Assembly (NCBI RefSeq): GCF_964204865.1
Contig: NC_135258.1
Location: 11,036,001 to 11,100,000 of the forward strand
Reading direction: 5' to 3'
DNA length: 64,000 nt
Source of the DNA: Styela clava
Lineage: Eukaryota
Of the stretch, positions 2 to 46,500 are shown one piece after another. Positions within the stretch are counted from its first letter, which is position 1. Each line of letters starts with the position of its first letter. The notes under the pieces are model-generated. The model had not been told where the DNA came from. It worked only from the letters and a program-made list of their open reading frames with translations, and ran no database searches. The position numbers were made by a program, and so were the translations under genes.

Positions 2-271
2 CAATCACTACAGTTATTTTCTAAAGAAGTAGAAAAAAGGAATGATCATAGGAACCAATTCTTCTTTTATTGGATTAACCTGGAGAAAAAAGCCATCTCT
101 GATTTTAGAGTTGAACTAGCTCATTTGCATTACAATTTTAAACCGGGACTAAAATGTTGTGAAGATTCTTCTGCAGAAGATGAAAGTGAAATTAGTTGTC
201 ATTTTGTTTTGGTTGAAAAGCGAATGGTGGAAAAACTTCGTAAATATTTCCCTATTTTGAATAAATTGTAG
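2..271 (+). CDS. Cluster copy A: 3' part of the last exon of a GNAT-like gene (5' part outside window)
   Basis: Frame 2 reads QSLQLFSKEVEKRNDHRNQFFFYWINLEKKAISDFRVELAHLHYNFKPGLKCCEDSSAEDESEISCHFVLVEKRMVEKLRKYFPILNKL* with no stops; closely similar to ORF 6114-6524; AATAAA at 274-279. Confidence 0.85.
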   Translation, partial: QSLQLFSKEVEKRNDHRNQFFFYWINLEKKAISDFRVELAHLHYNFKPGLKCCEDSSAEDESEISCHFVLVEKRMVEKLRKYFPILNKL

Positions 272-1690
272 TCAATAAACCTTTCAACTAATTTCAATGT
301 TACAATACTTGATGTTATATATATATAGCTATTAAAAATCACTTTGCATTATTCCTTCTTCCGATCAATGCCAAGTTTGCTATTGATATATATATTCATT
401 TTTAACTATTGTCATGGCTATCGTATTACCATACTTGTTGCGAAATCTTGTGTGAAATCGAATCGAATTTTGTGCAGCAGTACGGCGTGTCAAACTGTAT
501 CACAATTTTTCGAAGTGATTAATATTTTCGCTTTTGGGCACTTTAGATTTAGAACACGAAAAAGATAATGAGGTAATAAAATAATTCATTTTACAATTCA
601 TTTTAATTGTCATGCTATTTATTTATTCAAACAATACTTTCCGAAATTTCAACTTTTTGTATTTTTTCGCATTTATACAAAATGTATACAAATTTGCTTA
701 GTCGATCATTGCAAAATATTACCCCAATCTACATATATGCCTCTTTACATCATATTCTCATATGACATAAAAAGTCCAAGTACAATCACCGATCTCTGTC
801 GTAATTCAAGGATCAGTTGCTCCCTAAATTAAGAAATTATTGAACGAATCTACTAATTCAGTCTAAAATAAACGAAAGAAGGAAATCTCAATTTTTTACA
901 GCAACTGCAGAGTTTTGAATTCTTCTGTATGGTCGTTTGCAATTTTAATACTTAAAGTGGATCAGAGGATAGTTTTGCAAAATTTTTGTTGGTGCTGTGA
1001 TTATCGGGAAAAAATAGCTATTTGCCTTAATTTCTAGACAAAAAACTTTTGAATAAGTGAAAATTCATAGCTTCAACCCAAATTTTAGAGTGAAAATTGC
1101 GCCACCACACGAGCTTTATATCAATTGATTCTTGCAAGTGCGCGTTTACGTAATGTCGTTATAATTTGCTTTTTTTGTTCTCAGATATTTTCCTTCAAAT
1201 TAATTTTTGCATTCAGTCACAAATTCAGTGACAATCTGTGCTGGTTTCAATGCGATCCCATTTTGTATTACTCTTTACCTTGAGTAAATTAGTGTAAGAA
1301 CAAAATTATTGAAATAAATTTTAAACTGCGATTTTACACAGGAAGTTGGATAATAAGATGAAGGATAGTAAACGACAGTATGCAATTTTGCGAGTTGCAG
1401 TTGAACAAGACATTTATCATCAAAAGGTGGTAATCGATATATTAAAATCATCATGTGAAATTGACTAAAAAGCGACTATTTTTTAACAAGTATAGTGGAG
1501 TCTGAAGAGTTTTGCTGATTATTGGTTAACAAGACTGACTCGTACATGTATTTCTGCGCCTGTATGCAACAAGACGAGTCTGTTAACAACTCTGGCTCTG
1601 GACCAATAGACAGCAGTTACAATACATATTTATATAGTAGACTATATATATAAATTTGAACACTTTATAGAAATATGTGGATTTTTAACA

Positions 1691-3258
1691 TCACAATTTG
1701 TTTGGAAGATGAACATATTTGCTAAGTGTTTCGACCATTTCTCTGTCGTAACAAAATGACAGCTTATTTCTCTTTTATGTTTTGCAGACGAATCATCGGA
1801 ACATTTCAATCCAGGTTTGTAATTATAATGTAGATGAGCTATCTCAAATATCTGGTCATCGAGCTTGTTCTCCGAACAATTCCAATAATTGAAGAAACGT
1901 GTATTGAAGAAAGAATTTGAAGTATTGTTCCCATATCATTTTTTCATCGATTTTGCACACACTTGCATGTATTCATTGGCATGTATTGTTTAAATATTTT
2001 GGCATGTGTAAGCTTTTATCACAACCATTCGAGAGCCATAAATCGCTTCAATCTTTAGGTCTTTTGCAGCATTTTCAATAAGTTGATGGATATTTTGTGC
2101 ACGCCATGCTCCAATTCTGATTTAACGACAACAATAAAATAGTAACCATTTTTCTCAAATTATTATGCTTGTGATATTACAGTTTATTTTACGGCAAAGT
2201 CAGAAGTCTGCATAACGCAGCTTAACGCTAGACACTTCAAACACAAGGGTGCAATAAGAAGCACGTAGGCAGGTAAAAGCAAAGATCAATTACTAGAAAA
2301 CAATTATGACATCATAATCACAAATCTAGTCCGTGTTAAAAACAACAAGCTATGACGTAAATGCACAAAAGGCACATTAAATGACTTTGTTACTTGATTG
2401 GTCCGCTTTACGCCGTTGCTCGTTTATAAATGTTATGAATGTACTTGTTACTTACAATAATTGTGCAACTTCAAATATATGGACTTATGGCAGTTAATGA
2501 CTGTTATATTGGCACCCGGAGGAGCCCAAAGGCTTACCCCTTTACACCATATTACCGAGTAAAAAATTTAAAGATAAGTAATACGTTTGTTATGTATTAC
2601 TTGATGCAGTCAGTGGTTCCCAAACTTTTTAGAATTGGGACCCACTATTTATTACTACAGCTTATGGCGACCCATCTCGTTTTCTACAATGTTATTTTTG
2701 ATAAATGAACACAAAAGACCTCTTCCGAAAAAAAAACATAGTGTTCTTCTTCAAAAGAAAAATAAATCTATATCCTGTCTAAATTTCGGGGAAACACGGT
2801 AAGAAGTGCTTACAGTGTACAAAACTGCTATGCGTAAAAAGCCACATGGTCGTTCTTTGTGTAGCAAATTTTTGTTGCTTCGATAAGATCGTAAAATAGA
2901 AACTTTCACAGATTAGAATTTAAATTGAATTTTTTCTTTTGTTTGTTTGAAGATTTACGTTTTCGAGTCGCCACCCATGCTAATAACCAGTATAGTTAAT
3001 CAAAGCTTTTTACATTTTTTGACGACCCACTAAGATTCCTTTTGTGACCCACCAGTGGGTCGCGACCCATAGTTTGGGAATCGCTGCAGTAAGTAATATA
3101 TACTGTATACTTCATTATTTTAAAATGTTGTAAGCTCTTATCTCGTGCAGGTATTTTCGATGTCTGGTAGATAACTTCTCACGATTGCTGAATTCACGAA
3201 TTCTCTTCCACAAATTTCATCCCAGTCTTCTTAATTTGTGCTACATCGACCCACATCA
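1691..3258 (-). pseudogene. Cluster copy B: pseudogene paralogous to copy D
   Basis: Last exon 1691-2116 reads IGAWRAQNIHQLIENAAKDLKIEAIYGSRMVVIKAYTCQNI* with a second stop (TGA) and a 3' frameshift. Exon 1 (~3140-3258) has deletions relative to 18012-18167. The middle exon is absent where a MITE sits. Confidence 0.85.
2611..3086. mobile_element. Non-autonomous hAT (Charlie-like) MITE containing a fragment of a Tc1/mariner-type end (~2760-2801)
   Basis: TIRs CAGTGGTTCCCAAAC / GTTTGGGAATCGCTG; internal (C)GACCCA motifs; no 8-bp TSD (only CAGT on both sides). Related ends at ~7990-8004 and ~10685-10702. Confidence 0.75.
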
Positions 3259-3634
3259 TTTATTCCGTCACTTGCAATAATACTTAACTCCTGGGTTAAT
3301 AACAGTATCAAAAATATATTAATAGTCTGCTCTAGTTTTGATACACAATGAATGAGTTGACTCATCAAAATCACTGTTGCCTTGTTGTCAATAATTGGTT
3401 TCGAAGCATTCGGACCTTGTACGTAGTTGATTACAGCTAGGTTACTATAGTACTGATGTTCATTACCGTTAGTTGGAATGGGTTAGCCTTGTTGATATGA
3501 CTCGCTGACAAAACTAGTATCGCTACCGAACGCAAATGACTTACTTGTTTATATAGGAGACAACATTCAGAGAGGATTAGAATGTTCTCGTACGTGAATA
3601 GGCTTTTATGCAACAGACGAAGAAACAATATGGG

Positions 3635-5925
3635 TAGGGTTACCATAATTTTTTGACTTCAAAGCGGGACGCCTCTTGTAACATTACAGTTTCCGATTTT
3701 ACTACATATGCCTACATATAAGCTATCCCGGCTGTCTCCATTGACTATATTGTCATCGACAGTTCATGCGCATATTCTCTGTCTAAATAAATATCGGGTT
3801 CAGTTCGAAATAATAGAAAGGAATAGACGCTAACAATACAAATGATCCGAATTTGTTGGGGATGCCAATGGGCAGAATGAAATTACTAATATGTGAAAAA
3901 ATCATTTGTAGAAATTTTTAAAAGTGTCCCCAATGGAAATGATAAAAATTTTGAGTTAGGATTTTTGAATTCTGATGTTGATAACTGTTTTAGAAATTAT
4001 TTGCTCACTGTCAATGCACTTGCAAGTATTGTTTTATTTCTTAAATCTGGTTGCTCACCTGGTCCTGATGAGATAACCAAGGAACATTTGGCATATCCTC
4101 ATCCAATTCTATCTGTGCTTTTATGTTTGGACATTACCACCTGTATGCACCATAGTTATATTCCAGCATCCTCAATTTCAAGTTCTATTCAGCCTATATT
4201 TAAGAACAAAAATGATGACATTTGTAGTGCAAGTAACTACAGGCCTGTTGCAGTAGACTCTGTCTTATCTAAGATTTTTGAAAAACACTTTTTCAATAAC
4301 ATTGGGTCTTACTTAACTGCATCTCACAACCAGTTTGATTTCAAGCCTGGTCACGGGACTGACATGTGCGTTTTTACAATAAAGCAGCTAGCTACCTATC
4401 TATCACCAGTTTTTACAGCTTTTTTGGATGCCACTAAAGCTTTTGATAAAGTTAATCATTGGACTCTATTTCGTAAATTGATCAACAGAAGAACCCCTAA
4501 AATATTTTTGTCGCTGATTGTACACATGTATCGTAATCAATCCATGTTTGTTAGATGGGGTAACAGTGTGTCAGATTCTTTCTCTGTCCATAATGGTACC
4601 AAGCAAGGCAGTATCTTAAGTCCAAATTTATATGCTGTTTTCATGGATGACCTCTCTGAATCAAGAGACCATTGGATGTGTAGCAAATAACAATATTATC
4701 AATCATATTTTTTATGCTGATGAAATGTGTTGCATTTCACCTTCATCCATAGGCCTTCAACGTTTACTTAACATATGCGAAAAAACTCTATTGAACATGA
4801 CATCTTGTACAACTCGAAAAAATCTGTTTGTATGTGTATCCAGAATAAAAAGTTTAGGCTGAATAATTTACCTGATATCAAACTCTGTAATTCTGTATTG
4901 ACATATGTTTCGTCCACTAAACATCTTGGTGTTTTCCTATCCAATGATCTTAGAGATGACCTTGACTTGAAACGTCAGTATAAATCAATTTATTTTATAG
5001 CCCATACTATTTTGAAAAAAATTGTCAACTGTTCCATTACTGTGAAAAATCTTTTATTTAGGACGTATTGTTGTAGTATTTATAACTGTCAGCTCTGGTT
5101 GTTTTTCAATAATTAAAATTATGAAAAAGTTAAAACTTAATATATATAATAATGCTTATCGCGTAATTCACTGTGTTTTTAAATGTGAGAGTCCGTCACA
5201 AAATGGTATCTGGGAACATTCCCTCTTTCGAAGCACTTCATAGAAAATATCTGTGGTTGCTCATGACGAGGTGCAATGACATCCTATTACAACCACTATT
5301 TGACTCCCAGATACTGTTTGTGACGGGCTATCTTGAATTCTACACTTCACTTTTGACTTCTAGTTTACTGTATTTAACTCTTTGTTGAGATCTACTGTGA
5401 ATCTGATTTTCGTATCAGGTATTTTATGTATTTATTGTGTTATTTTCGCTTATGTTTATTTGTTTGTGTTATTTTTATATGGACCGCAGCGGTCTGGAGT
5501 AATAAACGAATTGAATTCGATTTTTTTATGTACAGCAAAAGGAATAAAGAATAATGAAATAGTCTGCCGTTTTCAAGCATTGAGAATTTGCTTATTCGCC
5601 CAAGCATGCTTTTCTGTAGATAACACCTTTAAAAAAACGTTGTTCAATGTAACATTCACGTGAACGTCCGAAAAGGACCAATTGGAATTGATTTTACATG
5701 CGATACGTTCGCTAACATTGTTAGCGGGAAATAACGAAACAAACAAAATAACGCATTAACCTGCAGTAAGGACGCTAGCGTTGCGCTACACAGCAACAAC
5801 AGTAACGAGAATATGTTCGCGTATTATGCTGGATGGCTGAACGCAAAAGCGGGACTTTTGCCTGACTTGTCAAGACGCTAAAAAGCGGGACTGTCCCGTC
5901 TAAAGCGGGACGTATGGTAAGCCTA
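3635..5925. mobile_element. Non-autonomous hAT (Blackjack-like) DNA transposon hosting a nested LINE
   Basis: TIRs TAGGGTTACCATA / TATGGTAAGCCTA; perfect 8-bp TSD AATATGGG (3627-3634, 5926-5933); subterminal AAAGCGGGAC repeats at both ends. Confidence 0.88.
3830..5518 (+). mobile_element. 5'-truncated, frameshifted non-LTR retrotransposon (reverse transcriptase remnant)
   Basis: ORFs 3893-4690, 4632-4862, 4775-5116 and 5173-5388 carry SPGPD, NYRPVA, QFDFK, FLDATKAFDKVNH, GTKQGSILSP, FYADE and KHLGV motifs; ends AATAAACGAATTGAATT. 5' boundary approximate; clade not determined. Confidence 0.9.
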
Positions 5926-6113
5926 AATATGGGTCACGTCTACTTCTGCGTGAGTGTGGCCTTGCATTGAGCAAATTTACAGTATTTATCATTAATTATA
6001 TATATGAGCGATTATTTGAACTCGTGCTAGAGGTGAGAGAACAGATACAAGTACTCATACAATTTACCTATAATTAGACTGATATTGATTTGCAAAAGTT
6101 TACAGAATGACAA

Positions 6114-7574
6114 TCATAATTTGTTAAAAATAGGAAAATATTTGCGTAGTTTTTCAATCATTTTCTGTTCAACAAGAACAAAATGACAACTAATTCCGCT
6201 TTCATCTTTAGAAGAAGAATCCTCACAACATCTTAGGCCCGGTTTGAAATTGTAATGCAAATGAGCTAGTTCAACTCGGTAATCAGAAATGGCTTTTTTC
6301 TCCAAGCTGATCCAATAGCTAAAAAATTTATCCTCATTGCCATTCCTATTTTTTATCTCTTCGTAAAATATTTGTTGTGCTTGGCGTGTATGTTTTTTCA
6401 AAATGCCTTCGTCCCGATAAGCTTTGTGCACGGCTATGCGAGCTCCATAAATCGCTTTCATATCAAAATCTTTTGCAGCTTTATGAATAATTTGATGAAT
6501 ATTTTGTTCCCGCCATTTTTCCATTCTGAAAAGACGGGAAACATGGTTGTATTAGTTTTCTCAGTAGTACGCATAAATATTCACATACATAATTACATCA
6601 TAATTCAAGTGATCGTCTTTTTATTATTATTTGCATGTGGTGTAACTATAAGCACAGAGATACAAGTCCAGTTCAAAAAAGTATTCATATAATGGATGAT
6701 TTTTATTCGCCAAATAAGCGTTGACGACAAGTAAAAAATTTTAAACTTTGATAAAATAAAAATTGTGGGTGAAATATCGGATCTCTAAGGATTCAGAGGA
6801 TATTGAAAAAAAGAAAACAGTAGGCCTGTCTTTCTAGCGGCTTCAATTGAAATCCATTCTAGCGGCTAAATTGAAATCCATTGGTACGATACTATCGGGA
6901 AAAAAGTCATTTTATCGAACAACAACCATCTCCATATTACCAACAACCAGGATTTAGCATAAAGGTTCACAGACTACATGCCGGCAAATGCGAGTAAATG
7001 ATAAGATAATAGGCATTTTTGTGAAGATATATCTATTTATTTTGTTTAATTCAATATACCATACATGTGACGTACTAAACTACCGAGAAGCTCGACGAAA
7101 CTGACCTACATTCAATTTTCGCGAAGAATAATAGAATACACACGTGATAGCCTACTAACCTTAGTAACCGAGTGGTTCCATCTTCATCAACCTCAATCAT
7201 TTTCGTAATATCTGCTTTTCGTGGTATGAAATCATAAATAATCAACCATGCTCCAATAATTCTTGATCTGTTTTCTTGAATGCCATGGCCGTTTGTTATC
7301 TTTTCGTGCATTTTCACCGAAAGCATTACTGCACGATTATCTGAGTAACGGGCCTGCAAAAATAAGTACATTGATGATGAACGAAGTAACAATATGGGAA
7401 TTGCTATATCTTTTTTACCTCGTAAAGGTATCGAACAAATAGGGGCATCAGAAGTTTTCTTTTTTCAATGTCTGGTAAATATCTTCTTGCGATTGCTGAA
7501 TCCACAAATTCTTTTCCAAACATTTCAAGAACTTCATCCCAGTCTTTTTTACTTCGTGCAACTTCCACCCACAT
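6114..7574 (-). CDS. Cluster copy C: intact 3-exon gene, 253 aa, putative GNAT-fold N-acyltransferase; exons 7574-7419, 7353-7160, 6525-6114
   Basis: GT-AG introns of phase 0 and phase 2 join an open frame MWVEVARSKKDWDEVLEMFGKEF...IIGAWLII...IYGARIAVHKAYRDEGIL...IFNKL*. Intron positions match copy D. The gene structure is well supported; the product is inferred from motifs. Confidence 0.85.
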
Positions 7575-7770
7575 TATGCGTTGTATCGTTAGCGTGTACT
7601 TTATGCCCTTTATTAAACTTTTCAAATATGTAGGACTAAGGAATAAAAGCAAAAGGCCAACTCTTCTTTCTCATGCCTGCCTGATTTTCCTTTGAAATAC
7701 TAAATAATCTCTTATGTTCCATAAACTGCTAAGAAGATAAATAAACTGCAGATCGCAAAATTGCATCAAC

Positions 7771-7820
7771 TATAGTGCCTACCTCTATTGTTACGTAACA
7801 ATGGAGGCAGATACTACGTC
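7771..7820. repeat. Short imperfect palindrome (possible tiny foldback element)
   Basis: TAGTGCCTACCTCTATTGTTAC-GTAACAATGGAGGCAGATACTA, about 200 bp upstream of copy C. Confidence 0.5.
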
Positions 7821-10364
7821 ACAGAAAGTTAATATTATGGAAAGATATTCTGAATTTATTGATTCATTCATTTCTTGATTCATCATGATACACATCATTT
7901 ATATGAGAAACAACAAAACATTTATATTGAATACAATGTGTAAAATATTCAATCATATATTAGTTATGTAGCAAATCGCCGCAGCATACCCTTTGAGAAC
8001 CGCTGTTCCTCAGTACTGTTTTTCTGTGTACTGTTTTTCATGGTTTGTTGTATTTTATTTGGTTGTATTAAGCTAATGCAGTTGTATAATTAATATAGTT
8101 AAGCTAACTGCAATATTAGTGTCCAGGAAGCTGGCAGAAGGAACTTTATTGGTGATACCTTTCTGCGCCTAATACAGGTACGCCACACAATGAGCTATTT
8201 TAGGAAAGAAAAGAATCTTTACGGTTAGGCATTGCCATTTTTGTGAAATGCGAATCACAGACTTTTTAATATTAGATAAATAATGAATAGCTTCCTAATT
8301 GATGCGAAAGCCACGAAGGCATAACTTATAATATAATTTACTGTTAACTCCCGTGTTATTTTTCTCAATCTATCTGTCGTGATTCCATTCTAGAGCGATT
8401 TCCGTCGCCTGTTCATTAAGCTTTCATACGTAATCTCTTAAGCGTAATCTCCGATTCGGTGGTTGCTTCGCACCAACATACAGAGCATAAAATAAACTAT
8501 TTTACCCTTCCGCCAGTAAGGACCAATAATATTGGATCTTACTGCGATTCTTCATACCGAATACAACACACAAGTCTTTCGTGACAAATGAATTAAAATA
8601 TTTGAACAGTAACATATTTCTAAGACACTTTCTATAACCTATTTCTAAGACAAGGAGTTATTATACTTAGTACATCGCGCTCTGAGGGCTATGCGCATGA
8701 GCGATTTACGTGTTTACGTCTAATGAAATATAAGGCCCATCACAAAATACCCACGGTTGTTGTACTGCGCAAAAACAAAAAGACTAATTCAGTAACGACT
8801 CAAGATAATCTTATGAGAAAAAACATTAGAATATTTTGTTGAATACATTTGTTGAATATCATGACAATTGCAACATTTGCCTGTTAATGAAAGTGTGTTT
8901 TTCGGCATTTATCAGGGCCACGATTTCCATACATACGTAACTGATGCATGGTCTACAAATTTGCACCGTTTCGGTATGGCCTAAATACATACAATACCAG
9001 GCTGTCGAGTCATACGAAATAGAAAATATTCCCCTATAGTTATTATGAAACAGCAAATGTTATGGTGAATACCGGGTACCAGGTACGGGTAGATAACTTA
9101 AGAAAAATAAAAGTATATATATATACTAGATTTTTAACGACGTCTGCCATATTTATTTACTGAAAACTTGAAATCGATGGGTCCGTCAGTTGCAAGAAAA
9201 GCAATTTTTTTCTTAACAACAATGAGAATTTAAAAAAACGAGTCAATGGTCTGATTCGCGTCAAAAAACGAAAAATTATCCATTTTCACACGAATTAAGT
9301 TATTCTGATGTTTCAAGGAATAAAGTAGCTGCAAGCTGCAACATTGCCGCCCCTCAATTATAGAAGAAAAAAGAAATGAACTGCACTACGCCTATCAAGC
9401 TCTGCATAAATAACCGACGATAAAATTATTAATTACGTGTGGCCAGCCTGCTTTCGTCAATTATTAACTATGTCAGGGGTAGCCAGCCTGCTTTTGACAG
9501 CGATCGACTAAAATCTCAAAACTAGCCCGCGAGGTCATACAAAAAAACGAATGACTACTCTATATGCAGATAACTGCACACAGTGCCACACACGCATGTC
9601 GATAAGCTCGACACCGTGGGCGCATTCTTTAATTGTATTTTTATATTCCATTCAATTTGATTATGTAGTTGTACCCGAAGTAAATGTTTCGTCATTTATT
9701 TAATCTTCATACCACCCAGATCTGAGGCCTGCCTACTTATTAGTCGTGAGTGTTTTCCATTCCCCCGCAGTTTTGACCGGGTCTGGACTTCGACCACCCA
9801 CTTATACGTGTGAGAGAAAATAGTTTCCTCGTTCTCTTTATTTTGCCGGCTGGAGGCAGGGTTGCCATATTAGTTTTTTAACGCCAAATTTCACAACTTT
9901 GGCTTTATTAATGGGGGTGTTCCTTGTACGTTTGGTTAACTGGTCATTACATATTATAAAATGGTACAAAAAGTCGATTGTATACAGCGGAAAAAAAGGG
10001 TTAAAACACGTTTGACGTCAGAATTTCCGTTTGGCTTCTTTGATGTCTATTCTAGTGTCTATTATTAAAATTATATCAAATACAACATTTGGTGTGCAAC
10101 AATAGCCCGAGCATCAATTTTCGGCGAGCACGCATACGGATTCGTTGAAATCAAATACGGTAACTTCCGAGGTTCAGGAAATGGGACGAATACCAGCGTA
10201 GAATAAGCAAGTTCGAAAAGCGTTACCCTGGAGAAGTCAACAACGGCCATGTGGACCGTGTCTACATTTTCGGAGAAGAGCTACGCGATATCAGAGCGAT
10301 TGGCGGGAAATGCGAATGATGTGTCTTCATCCGGCGGAGGCAGTGAATGTTTAGTCGACCCTTA

Positions 10365-13200
10365 TAGTCCGGCAGATAAGGGGACCTTTTTGGCCCAAAT
10401 TTCAGACATAAAGTTTTTTTTATTTGTGATTATTCATCTTGGGGTCATTTCCCATCATTTCTACATGGGTGTGGAGTTTGTAGCCTTGAGCAATTTTTTT
10501 TACGGCTTGATATTTGTATTAGTGTTTTTTGTCAAACCTGTGCATCATAATGACGCACAACCTGAACCATAACCTGTTACAATACTATGTTCAGGTTGTG
10601 CGCAATCTTGGTGCACAAACTACACAAGCACCAAATTTACTAGGAAATAAAATCAATAACTTTTAGGTAATTGTTGAGCCCAATTTTGGGTCGCGACCCA
10701 TTACAGTATATGGAAATACTGTCGAAACATACGCGTAAAATAAAGAGTACTATTTCAAAATACACGTTTTTGTTGCAATTAACATTACAAGCCTGCTAAT
10801 GCAGTCGCCAGTGGTTCAAGTGGATATACACCTGGTGGAGAACAGTCAATTATTTGTTAGCGAGAATTGTTATGCAGCGGGATAATCACGACGACGCAGT
10901 GAAAGATAATGTTATCACGAGAACAAGAATGAGAAAAATTGTTACATTTTATAGTATATCCCTGGGAAAGAATGTAGTTCATTCTTATGTTCCATGCCAA
11001 TGCTTTTCAAACTACCAAAGACTCTCAACACTTTTGCTTCTTCTCTTCTATAAAAATACAATGTTATTATATATTCGCATTTCCATCTGTTTGTTCGTGC
11101 TCCCAGATAACCGATCAGCGGCCTCCAAGGAGGACGTGGTCCCTGTTTAAGAAACCTTGTCATAAACTAAAAGAGGCGACCGTGCTTCTCTTGCCTGTTG
11201 TCTTGCTGTCCCTGGAATTCAGCTACAACAAAAATTTCTCGAAAACGGATTTTTAAATTTTATGATTTTATTAATATTCTCAACAATGAATGATATACGG
11301 GTGGTAAAATGCCAAGTTATTCCAACAATATGATCATGTTTTGCAATTTACAACCAATATTTTGTATGTAACTTTGTTTGACAGAGCCCCAAGAGCTCTA
11401 ACTACAAATATCAAAAATGTGAGGCCAAAAAAGTCACACTACAACATTGCCAAATGTGCTGTATTTACGATAGAAAACAGGTTTACCAAAAAGAATTACA
11501 TGAAAAATGGTAAAATAAAGATCAATTCAGCAATATCTACTTGGTGATATGCATCTGTTGATGATTTTATGTGTTTGTTTCGGAAGTTCAATAACAGAAT
11601 TAATTGTGGTTGTTGGGGATGTTTTAAAAAAAGGTTGCATGGAAAAATGTTTTCACAAAATGTCAAGGTTTGATAGTAGTAGAGAAGTAGAAAAAATACT
11701 CCCATATTTTCTTTTTCATTTGATAACCACGCCACAGAACTTCCCCGATAAGTATACGCAGCAATTGCGAGAGGCAGATATGCCAAGATGGGATTTCATC
11801 GCATTGCAAACCAATATTAGCAATTCTTATATATATTCACGCATTCCCATCTGAACAGCGTGGAAAAGATTATACCCATCTACACACTTTAAGAACTATG
11901 TCAGATGAGCGTCATATTATCGAATATCAGCAAAAGAATAGTGCAATGGGAGAAGACATATAAGGCGGAACTTTCAGTAGTATGCAATCAAATAATCTTA
12001 TTGTAGAATATATATTTGAAAACATTTTGTCACGCCAACTGCAGTCCGAAACTTTTTGTCTCTGACTGAGCTTAGATTGGCACTCATGTAAACTGGTAAG
12101 ACTGTAAGAGGCACGCGATGGAGCAGATACTAAGAGTATCCATCCCCCAGCTGTCATTTGAGTGGGTACTGCTGTTTTTATTGCAGATGTTACTGATCTT
12201 TTTGTATTAAAGATTTACTGGCATCACCGATTTAAGGATGTTGGAAACCAACACGCAATATTACAAAATTTACTTTCAACACGCGGTTTGAATGAATGAA
12301 AAAGCTGAAACTAGTATTCTTTAGAACAGCATACAAATTCTGTGGAATGAAACCATACAAAAAGCTCGTCAAAAACCTATAGATCAATAATCAAGTGGAA
12401 TTTGATGCATGTGCGCAAAAATGCGCGCGGTACTGCGTACAACCGAAGCACGCAGGAAAATGTGTGTGATGTACTAGTATTCGAAACGTTTGACTCAACT
12501 ATGTTGGCATAACAGGTGCACATCTCGGTTTCGCATACGCATACCTTCTATCTCCACAAGGATATATTAATTTTGCCAAAGTCAATGCAGCACTGAAAGG
12601 TTGCGGTTCTTCCAAAAGAAAACACGTTGCACATCTTTAGATACCAGTGGATGGTTTTACATGGCCTTGTTCGGAGTGAAAGACGAGGTCAAGTATTCCA
12701 ATCCAATTCGACTAATAAAATATTTCCCAAGTCCCTAAGCTTAAACTAGGAAACGAAATGCGCGCGGCAACGCAAATGTAGTTTGAAGAGCGCAATAAAA
12801 AGTGACTAGATGCTGTCGATGGATCTTGGCTTGTATTAGTGAAATAAACTACCATTTATTCTACTAAAATGAATTTCTGACATTTTAAGGAGATTCAATG
12901 TTTCTATGTACGCAAAACTAAACCATGTAGTTATAAAATAATTGTTTTTAACAAAAAGGCGCTCCTGAAGTATTTGTACCAAGATGGCGCACAACCTGAA
13001 CATTGTATGTTTACCAGGTTAGGGTTCAGGATGTGCGTCATCTTGGACCGAATACTTTAAATCCACTTAAAAAAATTTGCTCAACATTATATACTCAACA
13101 CCCACCTTGGTATTCTTATATATGTCATATACATTATATCTAAACAATAAAAAAAACTTTATGTCCCAAAACAATGTTAAGGCCCGATTCTGCCGGACTA
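10365..13200. mobile_element. Degenerate DNA transposon with long imperfect TIRs, probably Academ superfamily
   Basis: Termini TAGTCCGGCAGA / TCTGCCGGACTA; 3-bp TSD TTA; inverted similarity extends ~260 bp (GACATAAAGTTTTTTTTATT, GGGTGT.GAGT, TTGAGCAA.TTTTTT, then a shared hairpin). No intact transposase. Confidence 0.7.
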
Positions 13201-13942
13201 TTACCAGCAGTGGACACGGACCATTTTGATGTCGGAAAATTTCTTTAAAGTTAAAGATATTTGGGATGGTTTCTTTGTTCATTGGGTTTTCCATTTTTTA
13301 ACTGATTGGCTGCCGAGATGAGCAGCAGGTGGTAATGGCTGACATAAATTAAATATTTCATAGAATGTTCATGAGACTGTGTGTTCCAAATTGCAGCAGA
13401 GTTTGAGAAACATCATTTTATGGGAAGGTGTGCGTATTCTTAGCGCCTTTGTGATATGCCTATAAAAGCTTTTGTAGTTTTTGAAGGGGTCCAGTAAGCA
13501 ACACATTAGACCTTGCGTGTCCACTGAAACCGGTCCAGCGATCTACAAAAGAAAGTATTACACGCTTCAGTGGTTCGCACGTAATTTCAAATTAAACCTT
13601 CCGGTCCACGTCATTGTACCACCTATCTAAGAGGTTCTGAAATGAGCTGCTCCGCTCTTGCTCAGTTGCTTCGTCGTGTTACTCGAGAAATCGCCGTTAC
13701 TCCCGTTAATCGAAGGGAAACGGGATTTATTTATTTTTTCTGGTAAGGGAGATGTTATTTCGACAAATATAAATTTAGCAAAACCATAGCATGTTCAATT
13801 CAAACCTTTTCCGCGTTCCGTGTTACTGTTGAACACGAATTTGAAATACCGGTACTGATATAAGGCCGGTGCGAGTAAGGGCATGATAGATAGAAAATTA
13901 AATCTCAATGCTTTATCGGTATAAACTATAGAAGCAGGTTAG

Positions 13943-14098
13943 TTATTACTTATCGATTTTAATCGGTAAGTATGTTGATAGGTATTTGTCTGTCTGTCTG
14001 TTAGATGCACGCGACATCTCACGAGAGCGAGATTGAATCTGCTCCAGATTTTGCATGTGCATTCATCATATCCAGGACCAGGATCCTATTGATTTTTC
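13943..14098 (+). mobile_element. Helentron-associated (HINE/DINE-1-like) element, truncated
   Basis: Terminal palindrome ACTTATCGATTTTAATCGGTAAGT and (GTCT)n; reverse-complement copy at ~17240-17434. Confidence 0.6.
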
Positions 14099-14591
14099 TC
14101 CGACCGATATTGTCGTTTTTGAGTTGATTGTTAGTTGTTGTTAAAAATTTGCCTTTTTTCTAAACTACAGGATTAATCGATTTAAAGTTTACAGTACTTA
14201 AGAAGGGTATTTTTTGTCAAATATCTTCGAATTTGGACTTGTTACAAACTTGACCATACTATTACTACTTGAAGGAGACGGACAACCTTGTTCCCTGACT
14301 AAGAAACAGAACAGTAGAGTATTTAGTTTTGTGTTTAAAATTCAAAATTGCCACGTTTGATGAGTTCGTATTTGTCGATTGAAAAATCCATCATCTGAAT
14401 ATTTGTTCTACTAGTGACAAACTCCTGTGCGCATAGTTACAGTACTTGCGACTCATAATATAATTATGATCACTAGTATCCTGATATAATGAAATGTGAC
14501 AAGATATATATGTATATATATTTATTCGCTAATTCTACTGAAAGATTTTGTGCAACCATATTTTATCTGTTCAATTTTATCAAGTTTTTTC

Positions 14592-14815
14592 TTTTAAGAA
14601 ACCATAATGGTCAATCAAAGCAGTTATTTTCATAAATCTGGAGAGTTAGAAAAAAAGGAATAGACGTTGGAACCAAATCTTTATTTATTGGATCAGCTTG
14701 GAGAAAAAAGTCATCTCTGATTTCAGAATTGAACTAGTTCATATGTATTACAATTCCAAACCGAGACTAAAATGTTGTAAATATTCTTCTGCTAAAGATG
14801 ATAGTGAAATTAGTT
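14592..14815 (+). pseudogene. Cluster copy E: decayed last-exon fragment of an A/C-type gene
   Basis: Reads ..YWISLEKKVISDFRIELVHMYYNSKPRLKCCKYSSAKDDSEIS.., homologous to 2-200, with an upstream stop and indels; truncated at both ends. Confidence 0.8.
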
Positions 14816-16333
14816 TGGTTGGCAATTTCGTGAACGTTTCAAATCAATATCAATGTTAGAACGTCTTTGACCTGCTGGAATGAATGCTTATCTTGTTACT
14901 AATGTTAAATATATATTTATTACGAATTCTTGTGTCGGATGGCGAACGCAGGTACGCAAACATGACGTACTGATTACGTATCTACACAAAATGCGAGCGC
15001 CAGGCTGACGTCCTCCAGTTGGTGCCACGTACGATCGAGACGTATTGCGCGTCAAAGTGCGTAAGATACTAATCCCATTATATCTTGAAGGCTTTTCGGT
15101 TTGACTTTAAGTTATGGACAGGAGCGTGCCAAAATTTACTGTTGCCTAGGGTGTGTTTCTGGTTATGATGCCCCTTATACGTAACTTTAAAAATAAATTA
15201 CAGATGATGTTGTACATGACAATGAATAAATCAAATGTCAAATAGGAGTAAAATGTTTGTATTATAGCGCAATGACCAGGCGACTCATCATCAACACAAG
15301 ACTATATACGTAATGTCGGGTTTAACTAAATCAAAACGCATCGAGAAATACATCGTGAATCTGCTTATGGCCCTTCCCACGACATAGGCTTCCGCCATAG
15401 TTAACATCAATCCTGATCAGAACTACAGGGCTTAGAAGAATTTTCAATCTTCTTTATATGAAATTTGAAAGTGCAAACGTAAGGAACACTATTTAATTCT
15501 CAATTTAATGCGTTCTGATAGGGGTGCCCCTGAATGGCAAAACTTACCGCGTTTGTTTATTATCGATCTGATTTCTTTGGTAATATTTGTGATAGGTGAA
15601 ACATGGGCGGGTTAGCTCTTTCGCAGCCCAGCTTCGTAGATGATAATTTTTTTATTTAATAAAAGAAAGAAGCATTGTTAAAAAATGATTTACTTTACTC
15701 ACTTGTATGAATTGTCATCGAAATTTATTGAAAAGTTTAAGTTCGGAAGTTCCAGCCTTTTTTCGATTGGCGTCATTAATATTATATGACTATACAATAT
15801 TCAGTGATTGTTACTGTTTTTTCTATTTTGTTAATTAATTTACCTAATTAGGGTGTCAAATGATACTTTGACGTCATGCGCTCCATTGCTGAATCTGTGA
15901 TAAGATGATATAATTTTCTTAACCCTATTTTCTATTTTGATTCCGGTCTATGTCCAATAAAAAAAAATTGTGATATCTTTATGATTGTTGTAGTTCTTTT
16001 ACTGGGCGTGCCCCGCTTCAAACAATACTTGACCTGTTAAAACCCTAAATTGCCTTCGATGACTTTGATAGTAACTTTAAATTTCCGATATACGGTAATT
16101 ACTCATTTCTTTATCTTATTTACATTTTATATTTAATCTCATTTGATTTCACTTATGGTACTATACTATGCCGTGATGAGCTTATATATAGCATAAACAC
16201 AAGGGCCGTAAGCCTAAGTGACCTTCATCGGTCCTGCACACCGACCTGCATAAAACGATAAACAATTACTGTTGAAATATTTATTCATTGGATTATGTTT
16301 ATAATAGTGCTGGCTTTGTTTGTGTGACAATAA

Positions 16334-16357
16334 ATCTCTCTCTCTCTCTCTCTCTCT
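16334..16357 (+). repeat. (TC)n microsatellite directly after AATAAA; possibly the tail of an old LINE
   Basis: ...GACAATAAATCTCTCTCTC... The repeat is seen directly; a LINE origin is inference. Confidence 0.6.
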
Positions 16358-16609
16358 GAGGGTCATTTACTTAGAACATATTCTTGAGAGAACATAACTT
16401 TTGTACAAATCTTTCTAGATTTCTGTAACTCCAAGATCATGCGCAAAAAAAAACTGAAATGAATTTTTTTAATTTTCATAGAAGTAATTAAGAAATTTAT
16501 GGGTTAAATTATTTTTATAGGAATGGGGAGGGGGAAACTCTGTATAATACATATTATGTAGTATAGAACAATTTGAGTACTTTATATATAAAGTATTGAT
16601 TTAATTACA

Positions 16610-18167
16610 TCACAATTTGTTTAGGAGAGAAAAATATTGCCTTAGTTTTTCAACCATTTCCAGGTCTGCCATGACGAAATGACAGCTTATTTCGATTTCA
16701 CGTTTTGCAGACGAATCTTCGGAACATTTTAGTCCAGGTTGGTAATTATAATGCAGATGAGCTATCCTATATGTTTGGCCAATGAGCTTGTTCTCCAAAC
16801 TGGTCCAATAGAGAAAGAAACTTGTATTGTTTCCATATCTTTTCTTCGTCTCTTTTGAACACAAATGCAACATTTCATCGGAATGTCTTTTTAAAATATT
16901 TTGACCTGCGTATGCTTTTACCACAACCATTCGAGAACCATATATCGCTTTCATGTTTAGGTCTTCTGCAGCATTTTCAATAACTTGATGAATATTTTTT
17001 GCACGCCATTCTTCCACTCTGATTTACCGAAAATAATAAAATGGTTACAATATACGTATATTAATAAGAATTGAGAAAGCAAATAATAGACAAATGAGAA
17101 TATCGGTCAGAGACCAAAAACTTATCGATCGAAAGTTGGGGGGATCCCCCAAAACAGCGCTATTACTCCATAGTGACACCTTGTGTCCCATCACTAATTG
17201 ATTATTAACTCGCTAATTATACGACATAATTCGCCCAAAATCAATAGGCTTCTGGTCCGAGATAAGATGAATGCACATGCAAAATCTGGAGCAAATTCAA
17301 TCTTGCTTTCGTGATATATTGCGTGCATCTAACAGACATACAGACAGACAAATACCTATCAACATACTTATCGATTAAAATCGATAAGTAACAAATACCT
17401 ATCAACATACTTACCGAGTAAAATCGATAAGTAATGAGTACAATACTTTTCAGGATTTTTGCGCGTCAGTTAAACACAGAGTCTTGAGCGCTTTTAGAAA
17501 GCGACGAAGTCCGTGCAGACCAAAAGCACGTATTATGGTTTTCATACTTAACTGTCTCGCTTTACTTCTTTGCTAAATGTTATAGTTATAAATGTACTTT
17601 TTACTTCTAATAAATCACTTCGATTTTGCAATTTCACAATATATGGACTTAATGCAGTTAGGCCTACTGTGTGGTATATTGACTCGTAGAGAAGCGCAAA
17701 AGCTTTCGCTTAATACCATGTTACCGATCCACGAAGTGAAAGTAAGCAATACGTTGTTCTGTAGTACTTACTTCATCAATAGGTCGGTTCCTTCCTTATA
17801 AACTTCGACCATCTTTGTGATATCTGCTTGACGCGGCGAAAAATCACAAATAGCTAACCATCCTGCCACGATTGATGTTTTGATTTTTTCGTTTTTTGTT
17901 TTCACCAAAAACAACATTCCTTGATCCTCCGAGTAACGAGACTATATGCAAAAAGCAAATACATTGTTAAAAACATTACAACATTCATTTTAAAATGGTA
18001 TAAGCTCTTACTTCATACAGGTATCGGAAATATAACGGCATTAAAAGTTTTCTTTTTTCAATGTCTGGAAGATATCTTCTAGCGAATGCTGAATCCACGA
18101 ATTCTCTTCCACAAATTTCGAAAAATTCCTCCCAGTCTTCTTTCCTTTGTGCTACCTCGACCCACAT
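16610..18167 (-). CDS. Cluster copy D: intact 3-exon gene, 244 aa, putative GNAT-fold N-acyltransferase; exons 18167-18012, 17941-17772, 17018-16610
   Basis: Spliced frame MWVEVAQRKEDWEEFFEICGREFVDSAFARRYLPDIEKRKLLMPLYFRYLYE|SRYSEDQGMLFLVK...IVAGWLAICDF...LLMK|VEEWRAK...IYGSRMVVVKAYAGQNIL...LLNKL*; canonical splice sites; TATA-like sequence ~50 bp upstream. Confidence 0.85.
17088..17434 (-). mobile_element. HINE/DINE-1-like element in intron 2 of copy D
   Basis: Subterminal CTTATCGAT repeats, GGGGGATCCCCC stem, (CAGA)n, and terminal palindrome ACTTATCGATTAAAATCGATAAGT duplicated in tandem (~42 bp). Confidence 0.65.
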
Positions 18168-20192: not shown

Positions 20193-20670
20193 CCATGTTT
20201 TCCCCAAAAATAAGACCTAGCCTTCATTTTGAAAAAGATTTTAATATAAGCCATCCCCTTAAACCCCTTAAAATAGGACCTATTAACTAATCCTGTAACA
20301 TTAATACACCTTATCTGCGATGTTCAGTTGTTGAATCATCGGATACCATGTATTTGCGACCTGAGCATCAAGATTTCAATCACACTTTTTGGCGCTAAAA
20401 CAGTATTATGACGTAACAAATCCAAAGCTCGAGTGGTTAAATCTTAAAGATTGATAATCTATGTTTTGCAGTTTTGAAAACGTGTTATTTATAAGTAAAT
20501 GATATCGTATTTTATATTTTGTATATATATTTAAAAATCTCGTAATTTTCTAATTTGTAATTATTTTTTTGATAAATGAAAATATAAGACATCCCCCCAA
20601 AATGAGCCCTAGTGTTATTTTCCGGAAGAAAATTGAAATAAGACCCAGTCTTATTTCCGGGGAAACACGA
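20193..20670. mobile_element. Tc1/mariner-type (Tc2/pogo-like) MITE
   Basis: TIRs CCATGTTTTCCCCAAAAATAAGAC / GTCTTATTTCCGGGGAAACACGA followed by TA; internal ATAAGAC repeats. Confidence 0.7.
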
Positions 20671-21051
20671 TATGACCTTTATCCCGTACGTACCCTGTGA
20701 TATTCAATTTTGATTAATTGAAAATATTGCTCAAATTATGGTGAAATATTCTGTATAAATATTCAGGCCTTTCTCCTGAAATCTAAACATTTTCTCATAA
20801 TACCATATTATTGAAAATGATGAGTCAAATCAACAACAACTGTTTGTCACGACTTAGAATTCGCAAAATAGGGTAACATACTTTAAGATTTAACCACTCG
20901 AGCTTTGGATTTGTTACGTCATAATACTGTTTTGGCGTCAGAAAGTGTGATTAAAATCTTGATGCTCAGGCCGCAAATACATGGTATCCGATGATTCAAG
21001 AACTGAACATCGTAGATAAGGTGTATTAATTAATGTTACAGGATTAGTTAA
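20283..21051. repeat. Inverted repeat with ~167-bp arms (20283-20449 and 20881-21051)
   Basis: The arms are near-identical reverse complements (e.g. CAGTATTATGACGTAACAAATCCAAAGCTCGAGTGGTTAAATCTTAAAG). Confidence 0.9.
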
Positions 21052-33924: not shown

Positions 33925-34483
33925 TTCGAGCATAGTGGGGTACGGATGGTAATTTTAAGTTGACTGATAAAAAGTTTGTGTTTCAGATATATTTCCTAGT
34001 TAATAGCATGTTGAGGTGAACATTTTGAAGTGGTAAAATAATTACACCACAAATCGTATAGAGTTGGCAACTATAACGTCTGATCATCATCGATTATCTT
34101 GCCAGAAGATTGCCATACTTTGAGCATAGTGTGGTACAGATGGCAATTTTAGGTTTGTTGATAAAAAGTTAGTGTTTTAGATATATTTTCTAGTTAATAG
34201 CAAGTTGAGGTGAACATTCCACCGTTGTAAAATAATGACACCACAAAGTGTAGAGTTGGCAACTATAACGTCTGATCATCATCGATTATCTTGCCAGAAG
34301 ATTGCCAGACTTTGAGCATAGTATGGTACAGATGGCAATTTTAGGTTTGTTGATAAAAAGTTAGTGTTTTAGATATCTTTACTAATTTATAGCAAGTTGA
34401 GGTGAACATTCTACCGTTGTAAAATAATGACACCACAAAGTGTACAGTTGGCAACTATAACGTCTGATCATCATCGATTATCT
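33925..34483 (+). repeat. Tandem repeat of ~193-bp units, ~2.9 copies
   Basis: GAGCATAGT..GGTAC.GATGG starts at 33928, 34122 and 34314; GTTGGCAACTATAACGTCTGATCATCATCGATTATCT occurs three times. Confidence 0.92.
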
Positions 34484-43400: not shown

Positions 43401-43516
43401 TTAGTAAATGTTTGTCTTTTTACCTATTCTACTATTTTTGTATTTCAATGCAGGTAATAAATTAAGTACACATTCTGTTCTACACTGTGAAACTGAGGTC
43501 ATAATATGCTTCAAAT

Positions 43517-46500
43517 ATGTTTTTAAAAGTGATTTATAATCAGATGGGCTATAGAAATACCTTTTCCTTGTTACTTTTAATCTTCATGCTGGAATTAGTA
43601 AAGCCAGGATTTTCAAATACAGTAACCCACAACTTAACTCAGGGGACAACAAATGCTAACAACCGCACCCCATCGTTCATCACAAAATCAACATCAAATG
43701 TCGTCGAGTCATTGCCGGAAACAATCTTCATCAGCTTTCGTCCAATTTCTGGGAATAACATCTCAAACAGTGTCTACAATTGCAGCGAAGAAGCCGGCCC
43801 TTCGGAGATGACTGGCGCTGCAAAAGTCATTGTGGTATTCATCTTAGTAATCGTCGTATTCGTGACAATATTCGGCAACGCATTGGTGATTTCAGCTGTC
43901 TTGGTGTTTCATGAACTTCAGACTATAACAAATATGTTCGTTGGAAGTTTAGCATGTGCTGATCTTATTATGGGTGCAGTGGTTCTTCCGTTAGGAATTC
44001 CATATGTAATCAACGGAAAATGGGGTCTTGGAATACTATTCTGTAGAATATGGGTATCAATTGATGTATTAACCGTAACAGCAAGCATAGAAACGCTTTG
44101 TGTTATAGCTCTGGATAGATATTTTGCTATAACAAAGCCGTTTACTTACACAACATACGTAACCCGAACTAGAGCCAGATTTATCATTGCGGTAATATGG
44201 ATAACTTCGGCAAGTATTGCGTTTATTCCTATCCAACTTGGTTGGTGGAAGAAAGATTCAGAGAAAGCGAATTGCTGCTACAACAACGCTGAATGTTGTG
44301 ACTTTATAACAAATGAAACGTATGCTCTTGTGTCATCAGCTATCTCGTTCTACATTCCTCTCATTATAATGGTCTTTAGCTACTCCATTGTGTTCAAAGG
44401 TATTTATTTTTTATTTTTAATAACTTTTATATTAGTCAGAGTTCTTTCTGATTGCATATCGTGCCCAATATATTACACTCTGAATGATAAGTCCAGATTC
44501 ATACATTCCTAATACCTGTCTCCAGTAAAGCAGCTGGATCTTTGCGCTGATACTTATAAATTGCAGACACTGTCCATGACTATGATATATTTATGGAACA
44601 CAACGAATCCCTGCCTGCTATACGGCGAAACCCCAACCAAGGGTTGTATAAACGGGGTTCGGGAACCCTGCTGAGTTTGACCTTAGTGCGCCTTCGTTAA
44701 AAGACACGCGTGGCGTATGGCAAGTGGGGCCCCTCGGGCTGACATTCTTTGTTATATATAATATTGTTTGCGATTATTACATAGACAAAATTGGGACCTC
44801 CTGAAGTAAGCGCACCAAGATTGCGCACAACCTGAATTCAGGTTGTGTACCAGGTTAGAGTTCAAGTTATGCGACATCTTGGTGCGCATACTTCAGGAGT
44901 ACCCAAAATTGTATTTTATATATATAATGTATTATAAAAATTGCAGACAGTTAATGCTTAATTGTACTAGAATCGATTTCACTTCATTCAATTCCTTTCA
45001 GTAGTGAACAAAGAAATTTGTTCCGTGGTTATGACGCTTATGTTTGATTAAAACATATTCAAGGTCACGGGCACGCAGTCAAAAGCCATCTCAAGTTCAA
45101 TCATTTACTTAGGTATTGAGCCGGACAAATATTGTTTATATATTATACACACTTGTCTATGAAGATTAAATCTGTCATACATTGGTCCTCAATAACTTGT
45201 CGTACAAATTGTCTTTAAGAAAAAGATACAAATGTTTTAGATTTGAAGATTTATTTTTTGTTTTTAATTTTTTTTTCTTTAGAGGCAATTCGACATGCGT
45301 CTCAAATCGATGACCAAACCGGTATATTTCGTCGAGCCTCCATGCCAGGCACGAATCGTCCACTGTGGAACAAACAACAAAGAAGAACCGTCTTCACAAT
45401 GGGATATATCATGGGAATATTCGTTGTTTGCTGGCTTCCGTTTTTTATCATGAATTTAACTCAGGTTTGCTGCACTTTCTTCTTTTTTGTCTGTTTTCGT
45501 CATTTTATACTTTTGCAATTATCACTTTTTTGCCTTTTCTCATGAACATTATTAAAAAAAAAACAATCACGTTTTCATCTCTTTATGGCATTGTATTTTG
45601 AATTCTAAATTCTATTGCAATATTTTTTACAATATTTTTGCGATGATCCGTTGTTTTGTGATTTGTTGGAAATTATTTTCGCGTTTCCTAATTTTGTAGA
45701 TAGAACTCATTTTGCATGCTTATTTCTGGCAATTACTCCCGTAATTAACAGCACTACTACTGTATATATGGGTAGGAATATATCATTATTCGTTAATACA
45801 TAAAAAAAGATGTTTTAAATAAACTTAACAATTTTTTTTTCAGGCATTTTGTCCTGACAACTGTATTCCAGTCGGGTGGTTTACAACATTCAATTGGTTG
45901 GGATACGCAAATAGCTTTTTCAATCCATTTATATACTGTCATAACAACCAATTCAGACGAGCATTTGGAAGACTCTTAACTTGTTTGCCATGTTCGGAAG
46001 GTAAAAGCACTTTTGTGTTTTTAGCTGATATTGTACATTGCGATAAAAAAAAATATCAGATATTTTGGTGTGTCATCTGAGTTCTGCCGATATTTGAACC
46101 AGTAGAACTAATAATCCTTTAGAGTTTAGACAATGTCTCGCGCATAAGACGTTACTGGTTGCTTTTCTACCTTTAGTTTTTTTTACTTTTACGTTCTTGT
46201 AAACCCTCATAACTTATGTGTTTTAGGCGTTTTCAAACTTAATTTACCTTAGTATTCAATCTTTTAGTAACACCAAACACTGCGTTACTAAAAACTAGAA
46301 AGTAGTACTTCAACTTTGCATAATGGTACTTATATTATGCGTGGAAACAAGTTTTAAAATTTATATTAACATGACATTTGACCTTCATATTAGGTAATCG
46401 GGGTGCTCTCATCAGAAAAATAAAATTAGTTGAATTTTGATGTTACTTGCGACTTTTATAACCCATACGTGGTTGAGAAGGAATTGAGAAATTGAAAGAA

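Follow-up and report, generated by a model that had tools for sequence, protein, structure and literature searches.

A dispersed family of predicted GNAT-fold proteins in Styela clava, with one subclade bearing an eroded coenzyme A-binding signature

The insect aaNATs, represented structurally by Drosophila Dat/AANAT1 (PDB entries 5gif and 3te4), Aedes aaNAT2 (4fd6) and a Tribolium enzyme (6v3t), constitute small multigene families of low identity among members, and according to PMC7427786 employ the catalytic triad Glu47/Ser182/Ser186. A consensus of Q/R-x-x-G-x-G/A is given for the GNAT P-loop (PMC4964394), and puromycin acetyltransferase (PAC, 7k09) is reported to conserve it as QxxGxG (PMC7933286). 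Ebony, an A-PCP-aaNAT-domain protein which makes beta-alanyl-dopamine and beta-alanyl-histamine (PMC10510592), forms amides with biogenic amines from a donor other than free acyl-coenzyme A (acyl-CoA). The present analysis compares with these systems a cluster of five related genes, copies A to E, located at one end of a 64,000-nt stretch of the genome of the ascidian Styela clava (RefSeq assembly GCF_964204865.1, contig NC_135258.1, positions 11,036,001 to 11,100,000; this whole stretch is hereafter the window). As judged from the predicted fold, the cluster belongs to a rapidly evolving expansion, in ascidians, of GNATs of the insect-aaNAT/PAC-like type; one of its subclades, which includes copies A, C and D, appears to have an eroded CoA-binding site.

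The region consists of AT-rich animal DNA (GC 31-38%), and open three-exon models for copies C and D were obtained by enumeration of GT/AG sites. The products of copies C and D measure 253 and 244 aa, respectively; in both genes intron 1 is of phase 0 (65 nt in C, 70 nt in D) and intron 2 of phase 2 (634 nt in C, 753 nt in D), and all four introns are GT-AG. The spliced translations were letter-for-letter identical to two Styela clava proteins labelled 'uncharacterized' in RefSeq, XP_039263406.2 for C (P0004, LOC120339364) and XP_039262903.2 for D (P0003, LOC120338944), thereby substantiating the two intact paralogues with matching intron positions proposed in a preliminary description of this DNA. 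The coding fragment of copy A, cut by the window edge, was identical to the C-terminal end of the full-length 253-aa P0002/P0005, which has LOC120339956 as its named cluster-mate, and the edge copy and two broken copies (B and E) were found where that description had placed them. Chance resemblance of the copies was excluded because between-copy tblastn gave E 1e-47 for exon 3 and the ratio of nonsynonymous to synonymous substitution rates (dN/dS) for the C-D pair was low. Determined by the Nei-Gojobori method with bootstrap 95% intervals, dN/dS was 0.25 for C-D (0.16-0.38; 242 codons) and 0.19 for C-A (0.09-0.38; 89 codons), the D-A comparison being saturated; the coding copies are under purifying selection.

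Splicing was assessed by comparing contigs from four runs of three studies, the RNA nature of which was only guessed: among the runs found, none was recorded as RNA and nine were guessed to be so. The junction check suggested at the outset was borne out in part. Both introns of copy C were joined in all four runs, with joints at 6525-7160 and 7352-7418 and CT..AC ends, and no joint of copy D occurred among the 15 of 83 joints listed. A single contig from run X9 covered exon 3 of copy D (16665-17018), ending at the predicted acceptor.

AlphaFold modelling of copy C with an input alignment of 18 family rows yielded a predicted local distance difference test score (pLDDT) of 83.2 and a predicted template modelling score (pTM) of 0.82, with all five models between 78 and 83. 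The elements of the model, E denoting strands and H helices, are E2-5, H9-25, H27-32, H36-55, E60-72, E78-92, H102-136, E140-149, H151-156, H158-178, E184-190, E200-207, E230-236 and H237-246. The GNAT core order β1-α1-α2-β2-β3-β4-α3-β5-α4-β6 is present in this model, albeit with α4 shrunk to a turn, and the helix between β3 and β4 by which aaNATs are recognised (PMC4394704) has its counterpart in H102-136, situated between E78-92 and E140-149. A Foldseek search of the PDB returned 19 matches at E ≤ 0.001, and the rows shown were all GNAT-fold entries. First among them was Drosophila dopamine N-acetyltransferase (E 1.6e-5, template modelling (TM) scores 0.51/0.60); PAC (E 7.1e-5, TM 0.48/0.59), Tribolium AANAT (E 9.0e-5) and Aedes aaNAT2 (E 9.3e-4, TM 0.53/0.61, the highest TM among the rows shown) were also matched. 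The viral library likewise returned GNATs, two of them at E ≤ 0.001.

Comparison of ESM features gave a corresponding result. For an allele of copy C the top match (0.96) was an unannotated acetyltransferase-named cluster, and all ten of the best family-bearing matches lay in one GNAT family or clan; copy D matched PF00583 clusters of 207-247 aa at 0.94; and the nearest GNAT clusters for the two comprised proteins of about 180-250 aa at scores of 0.94-0.96, a score of 0.95 being reached by shuffled proteins about once in 100. An AlphaFold model derived from three sequences had a pLDDT of only 35, and its Foldseek search produced no match at E ≤ 0.001; the VIA result for that model, with Z ≤ 6.1 and 18 of the 20 top rows titled acetyltransferases, is taken as a hint only. 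As a prediction, a GNAT fold carrying a helical insert of the aaNAT type has good support, and the insect-AANAT/puromycin-acetyltransferase type assigned in the preliminary description thus agrees with the AlphaFold model, the leading Foldseek match to Dat and the ESM clusters.

Like the insect aaNATs, the window proteins combine a predicted GNAT core with β3-β4 helices, match the best Dat and Aedes chains over their full length (query TM 0.50-0.53), and form part of a family whose members are of low identity. Unlike them, they share no more than 13-17% identity with no sequence-level match, they have by spacing no Glu at the Glu47 position and an acid at that of Ser182, they are without the P-loop consensus and retain little of the helix bearing Ser186 and Lys192, and they possess an extra C-terminal loop-β7-helix with a conserved HLHY..PGL.C motif. 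Sequence similarity to Dat, on the basis of which iaaNATs have been collected, was not found in sequence searches of the PDB. In view of this missing similarity, the divergent P-loop and a doubtful triad, the proteins are not classed as insect aaNATs. The long-insert topology is shared with PAC and with bacterial long GNATs such as 2qec; unlike PAC, to which identity is 11% with no detectable sequence homology, the window copies do not retain the conserved P-loop.

The cluster is the local tip of a dispersed and diverse family. An exhaustive search with the three-sequence profile of A, C and D over 1.84 billion representatives gave ten matches at E ≤ 0.001, comprising D itself, seven other S. 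clava proteins labelled 'uncharacterized', and two unnamed Logan proteins; one further S. clava locus was recovered when profile A3 was used in a word-index search. The family thus comprises, besides the two unnamed proteins, no fewer than 12 S. clava loci (counted at <90% identity), the loci being dispersed over contigs of 18.7, 20.3, 22.5 and 23.5 Mb and their identity to C, among the rows compared, descending from 71% to 14%. The lineage-restricted expansion envisaged from the window was thereby upheld, and with more loci than had been seen there. No other named species was matched in the one exhaustive search, in which other ascidian members could fall short of E ≤ 0.001 or lie outside the library; the word-index search overlooked the known members P0008-P0012, and little can be read into its failure to match other species. 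Small-molecule transferases commonly undergo rapid tandem expansion in animals.

Seven sequence queries or profiles searched against the PDB retrieved nothing significant, and no aaNAT up to E 10. The distant paralogue P0011 (LOC120338051) alone gave matches to PF00583 and PF13508, at E 0.027 and 0.12, both below cut-off; weak WipA_Phos and PG_binding matches to the window copies, also below cut-off, were rejected. No description of the family was found in the literature searched, from the coverage of which subscription papers were excluded, and the main text of the S. clava genome paper contains no mention of acetyltransferase or acyltransferase. The term 'undescribed system' was nevertheless an overstatement: RefSeq models exist, if only as 'uncharacterized' proteins, no partner genes of a multi-part system were found, and the system is of a kind already known. 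Its interest lies in the presence in Styela of at least 12 diverged genes of predicted aaNAT fold, undetected by Pfam and NCBIfam, which would be candidates for host enzymes that inactivate amines, detoxify compounds or carry out catecholamine-based chemistry. Tunicates form the vertebrates' sister group, and only two insect-type genes are reported for Ciona in PMC4394704.

With respect to function, the preferred reading is that A, C and D are still acyl-CoA:amine N-acyltransferases with an atypical CoA-binding loop, a proposition to which about an even chance is assigned. Acyl-CoA would be bound between β4 and β5, gripped by residues 154-159 through their backbone amides; a buried pocket beneath α1/α2 and the insert would accommodate the amine; and the acid ending β5 (C-E192) would serve as the base, replacing the insect Glu47/Ser182 pair. 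Retained acyl transfer is considered most likely because the pyrophosphate would be held by backbone amides, active GNATs with atypical loops exist, and the candidate base is conserved; one such active enzyme, MtAAC(2')-Ic, is reported with the loop G-Q-R-L-V (PMC4964394). Residues of Dat were placed by spacing from PMC7427786 rather than by residue-level superposition, and on this basis C-E192 takes the Ser182 position, where D or E stands in all 13 of the 13 full-length rows. Also by spacing alone, the positions of the Asp46-Arg153 salt bridge correspond to D25 and R154 in C, the Arg position being Q in A and A in D. Invariant residues of the subclade include R48, R146 and Y208/P212/G213/L214/E218. 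We infer, as did the preliminary description, that amines or xenobiotics may be the compounds conjugated.

A number of observations weigh against this reading. At the P-loop position C has RDEGIL, A has QGQSIL and D has AGQNIL, none of the three conforming to Q/RxxGxG/A and each having Leu at the final position. In A, C and D the motif-B helix falls short of that in P-loop-intact paralogues by 4-7 residues, its Gly turn is gone, and the region is modelled as a three-residue turn with a pLDDT of about 64; matched by spacing, it is this helix that in Dat bears Ser186 and the CoA-phosphate contact Lys192 (PMC7427786). The Glu47 position falls on D25-S26-A27 at the end of α1, with no Glu in either register. 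As regards the fold itself, the TM-scores are modest and the root-mean-square deviation is about 6 Å; the second rank in Foldseek was occupied by human BCCIP, a GNAT fold without known activity (E 2.9e-5, TM only 0.33); and no window copy, whether searched as single exons or as whole proteins, gave a GNAT match in Pfam or NCBIfam, PF00583 and PF13508 included. The motifs quoted in the preliminary description are present in the sequence, but its 'motif A' is off consensus, and its claim of an intact motif A or B is not supported. On the evidence of these sequences, the CoA site of the window subclade is eroded.

Both the P-loop signature and the motif-B helix are kept in distant paralogues. P0011 has a strict motif, RGKGIG, and GxG/A is found in P0012, P0021 (LOC120337534) and P0024 (LOC120338076), so that the 18 rows of alignment A4 include one strict P-loop and three more with GxG/A. 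When the P-loop-intact paralogues were compared with the window copies by hhalign, the alignment (probability 99.6, E 9e-25) was gapless at the P-loop. The Ser186 region, again located by spacing, is deleted in the window copies and has a Ser in P0011. In a tree of 14 rows, from which alleles, near-duplicates and the partial P0015 were omitted, A, C and D clustered with LOC120334263 and LOC120332707/8 (support 98/96), and the P-loop motif was present in 0 of these 6. A second clade of four rows, P0013, P0016, P0025 and P0027 (LOC120338237, LOC120329026, LOC120341159 and LOC144428369), is also without the P-loop, although this part of the tree carries a long-branch warning. The distribution suggests that the motif was lost twice within the family. 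Members with an intact CoA loop stand beside a selected subclade without it, a natural comparison which raises the question of whether a GNAT that loses its cofactor signature is still active, has switched donor, or has become a binding protein.

The last of these outcomes, in which the window subclade would be a non-catalytic GNAT-fold binder of an amine, a pigment precursor or a partner enzyme and the P-loop-intact paralogues would do the chemistry, is judged unlikely. Both CoA-contact elements are eroded jointly in A, C and D, the P-loop-less state runs through the whole of the supported clade, and there is a precedent in BCCIP/Bcp1 (7kys), with a GNAT-like fold, an altered CoA groove and, according to 10.1101/2020.12.08.416925, no acyl-CoA bound in ten trials. 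The diphosphate-loop insertion of BCCIP/Bcp1 is, however, not found here, as is evident from the gapless alignment to the RGKGIG paralogue; the acid following β5 is retained in 13 of 13 rows; R48 and R146, polar residues newly invariant in the clade, would fit a working active site; and activity is compatible with atypical loops.

A switch of donor is decidedly improbable. In that event the proteins would be stand-alone, Ebony-like amide-forming enzymes supplied with the acyl group by a carrier-bound phosphopantetheine thioester, thereby rendering the CoA-pyrophosphate loop dispensable, and it would be with correspondingly little confidence that the P-loop-less subclade of A, C, D, LOC120334263 and LOC120332707/8 could be regarded as chordate Ebony-like enzymes, using a carrier-bound acyl or aminoacyl donor to conjugate amines, for example into catecholamine-derived metabolites of the tunic or blood cells. 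The C-terminal condensation domain of Ebony (6dym) shares the aaNAT fold and was matched at E 1.0e-3 with TM 0.50/0.57, about equal to Dat by TM, and FeeM was matched at E 5.3e-3; Styela peptides are reported to bear dopa and dehydrodopamine (PMC3039461), which provides context only. Unlike Ebony, which is fused to adenylation and carrier domains, the window proteins (9% identity) stand alone and are complete at 244-253 aa, the window showed no gene for an adenylation or carrier protein (short exons being scanned in part), and a weak search of 239-2000-aa proteins for an Ebony-type fusion gave only two 253-aa matches among 81 candidates.

That the proteins might instead be N-acyltransferases of proteins or peptides (N-terminal or lysine), acting for example on haemocyte peptides, is very improbable: Naa60 structures were matched at E 4.5e-4 and 7.3e-4 and Naa30 was the top PDB sequence match at motif A (non-significant, E 0.15-0.6), but the Naa60 TM-scores of 0.39-0.41 compare with 0.50-0.53 for the aaNATs, the Naa30 match is confined to a generic motif, and the 35-residue β3-β4 helical insert, an aaNAT feature according to PMC4394704, would likely shut the peptide groove.

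The family probably descends vertically from an insect-type aaNAT that tunicates already possessed, and diverged fast thereafter, which is the simpler reading; copies are likely to have been gained and lost locally, B and E being examples. Insect-type aaNATs are reported in PMC4394704 to number two in Ciona and four in Saccoglossus, the same source reporting urochordates to be without vertebrate-type and non-vertebrate-type AANAT. The microbial origin entertained in the preliminary description found no support, in that searches sensitive to close relatives only turned up no sequence homologue in microbes or viruses. Horizontal transfer of a PAC-like gene from bacteria into ascidians, with introns gained later, is accordingly rated very doubtful: the nearest ESM clusters are mostly bacterial, PAC and Corynebacterium 2qec are structurally close, and cold-shock genes provide a documented case of horizontal transfer in S. 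clava (PMC7540406), but arthropod and nematode clusters score equally (0.94-0.95), insect structures rank first, bacterial rows of this sort are stated in the Atlas output not to indicate transfer, no prokaryotic sequence homologue was found, and insect-type aaNATs occur in both Ciona and a hemichordate.

Table 1. Positions of the five gene copies and of an associated insertion within the window
Feature	Part	Position	Strand	Remarks
Copy A	exon 3 (part)	2-271	plus	last 89 codons and stop of exon 3; rest beyond window edge
Copy B	exon 3 remnant	1691-2116	minus	two stops, 21-nt insertion, 4-nt deletion (alignment to D exon 3)
MITE-like insertion		2611-3086	n/a	short terminal inverted repeats; occupies expected site of B exon 2
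Copy B	exon 1 remnant	3142-3256	minus	frameshifted; splice donor lost
Copy C	exon 1	7574-7419	minus	encodes predicted β1, α1, α2
Copy C	exon 2	7353-7160	minus	encodes predicted β2, β3, start of helical insert
Copy C	exon 3	6525-6114	minus	encodes predicted helical-insert end, β4, P-loop position, α3, β5, short motif-B turn, β6, β7
Copy E	exon 3 (3' piece)	14612-14815	plus	decayed; 81% identity to A
Copy D	exon 1	18167-18012	minus	GT/AG model; spliced translation identical to database protein
Copy D	exon 2	17941-17772	minus	GT/AG model; spliced translation identical to database protein
Copy D	exon 3	17018-16610	minus	GT/AG model; spliced translation identical to database protein

Pseudogene B closely resembles D. 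Its exon 1 has suffered deletions of 1, 9 and 31 nt and a change of the donor from GT to AT, and no exon 2 was found by tblastn; beyond the miniature inverted-repeat transposable element (MITE)-like insertion, homology of its intron 2 to that of D picks up again at 2602. A conserved non-coding block (2365-2602 and 17519-17769), considered as a structured RNA, was rejected as such, being the homologous intron 2 of B and D; it had no Rfam match, and its fold z values were +1.15 and +0.18 for D, amounting to no fold signal, and -2.36 and -1.30 for B. An unspliced 543-nt contig from run X9 (1700-2242, one mismatch) spans the junction between intron 2 and exon 3 in pseudogene B, reflecting either residual transcription or DNA. 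For copy E, neither exon 1 nor exon 2 was found in 7900-16500.

Between B and C, at 3890-5116 on the plus strand, lies a decayed reverse transcriptase of the non-LTR retrotransposon type (PF00078, E 2.9e-16), diverged copies of which are present in the run contigs. A 160-nt repeat forms an inverted pair (13940-14096 and 17237-17397, 89% identity), the second copy being inside intron 2 of D, and occurs at high depth in the run contigs. Elsewhere in the window, at 43505-45545 on the plus strand, a Rhodopsin-family G protein-coupled receptor was identified (PF00001, E 3.7e-43) with a possible long C-terminal tail exon at 48297-49235; by eye it looks aminergic or adrenergic, and its position 25 kb away does not count as evidence on the function of the cluster. 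Self-BLAST of the window additionally located a tandem repeat of about 194 nt (33925-34483), a palindromic element (44785-44912) and an inverted 187-nt pair (20283-21051).

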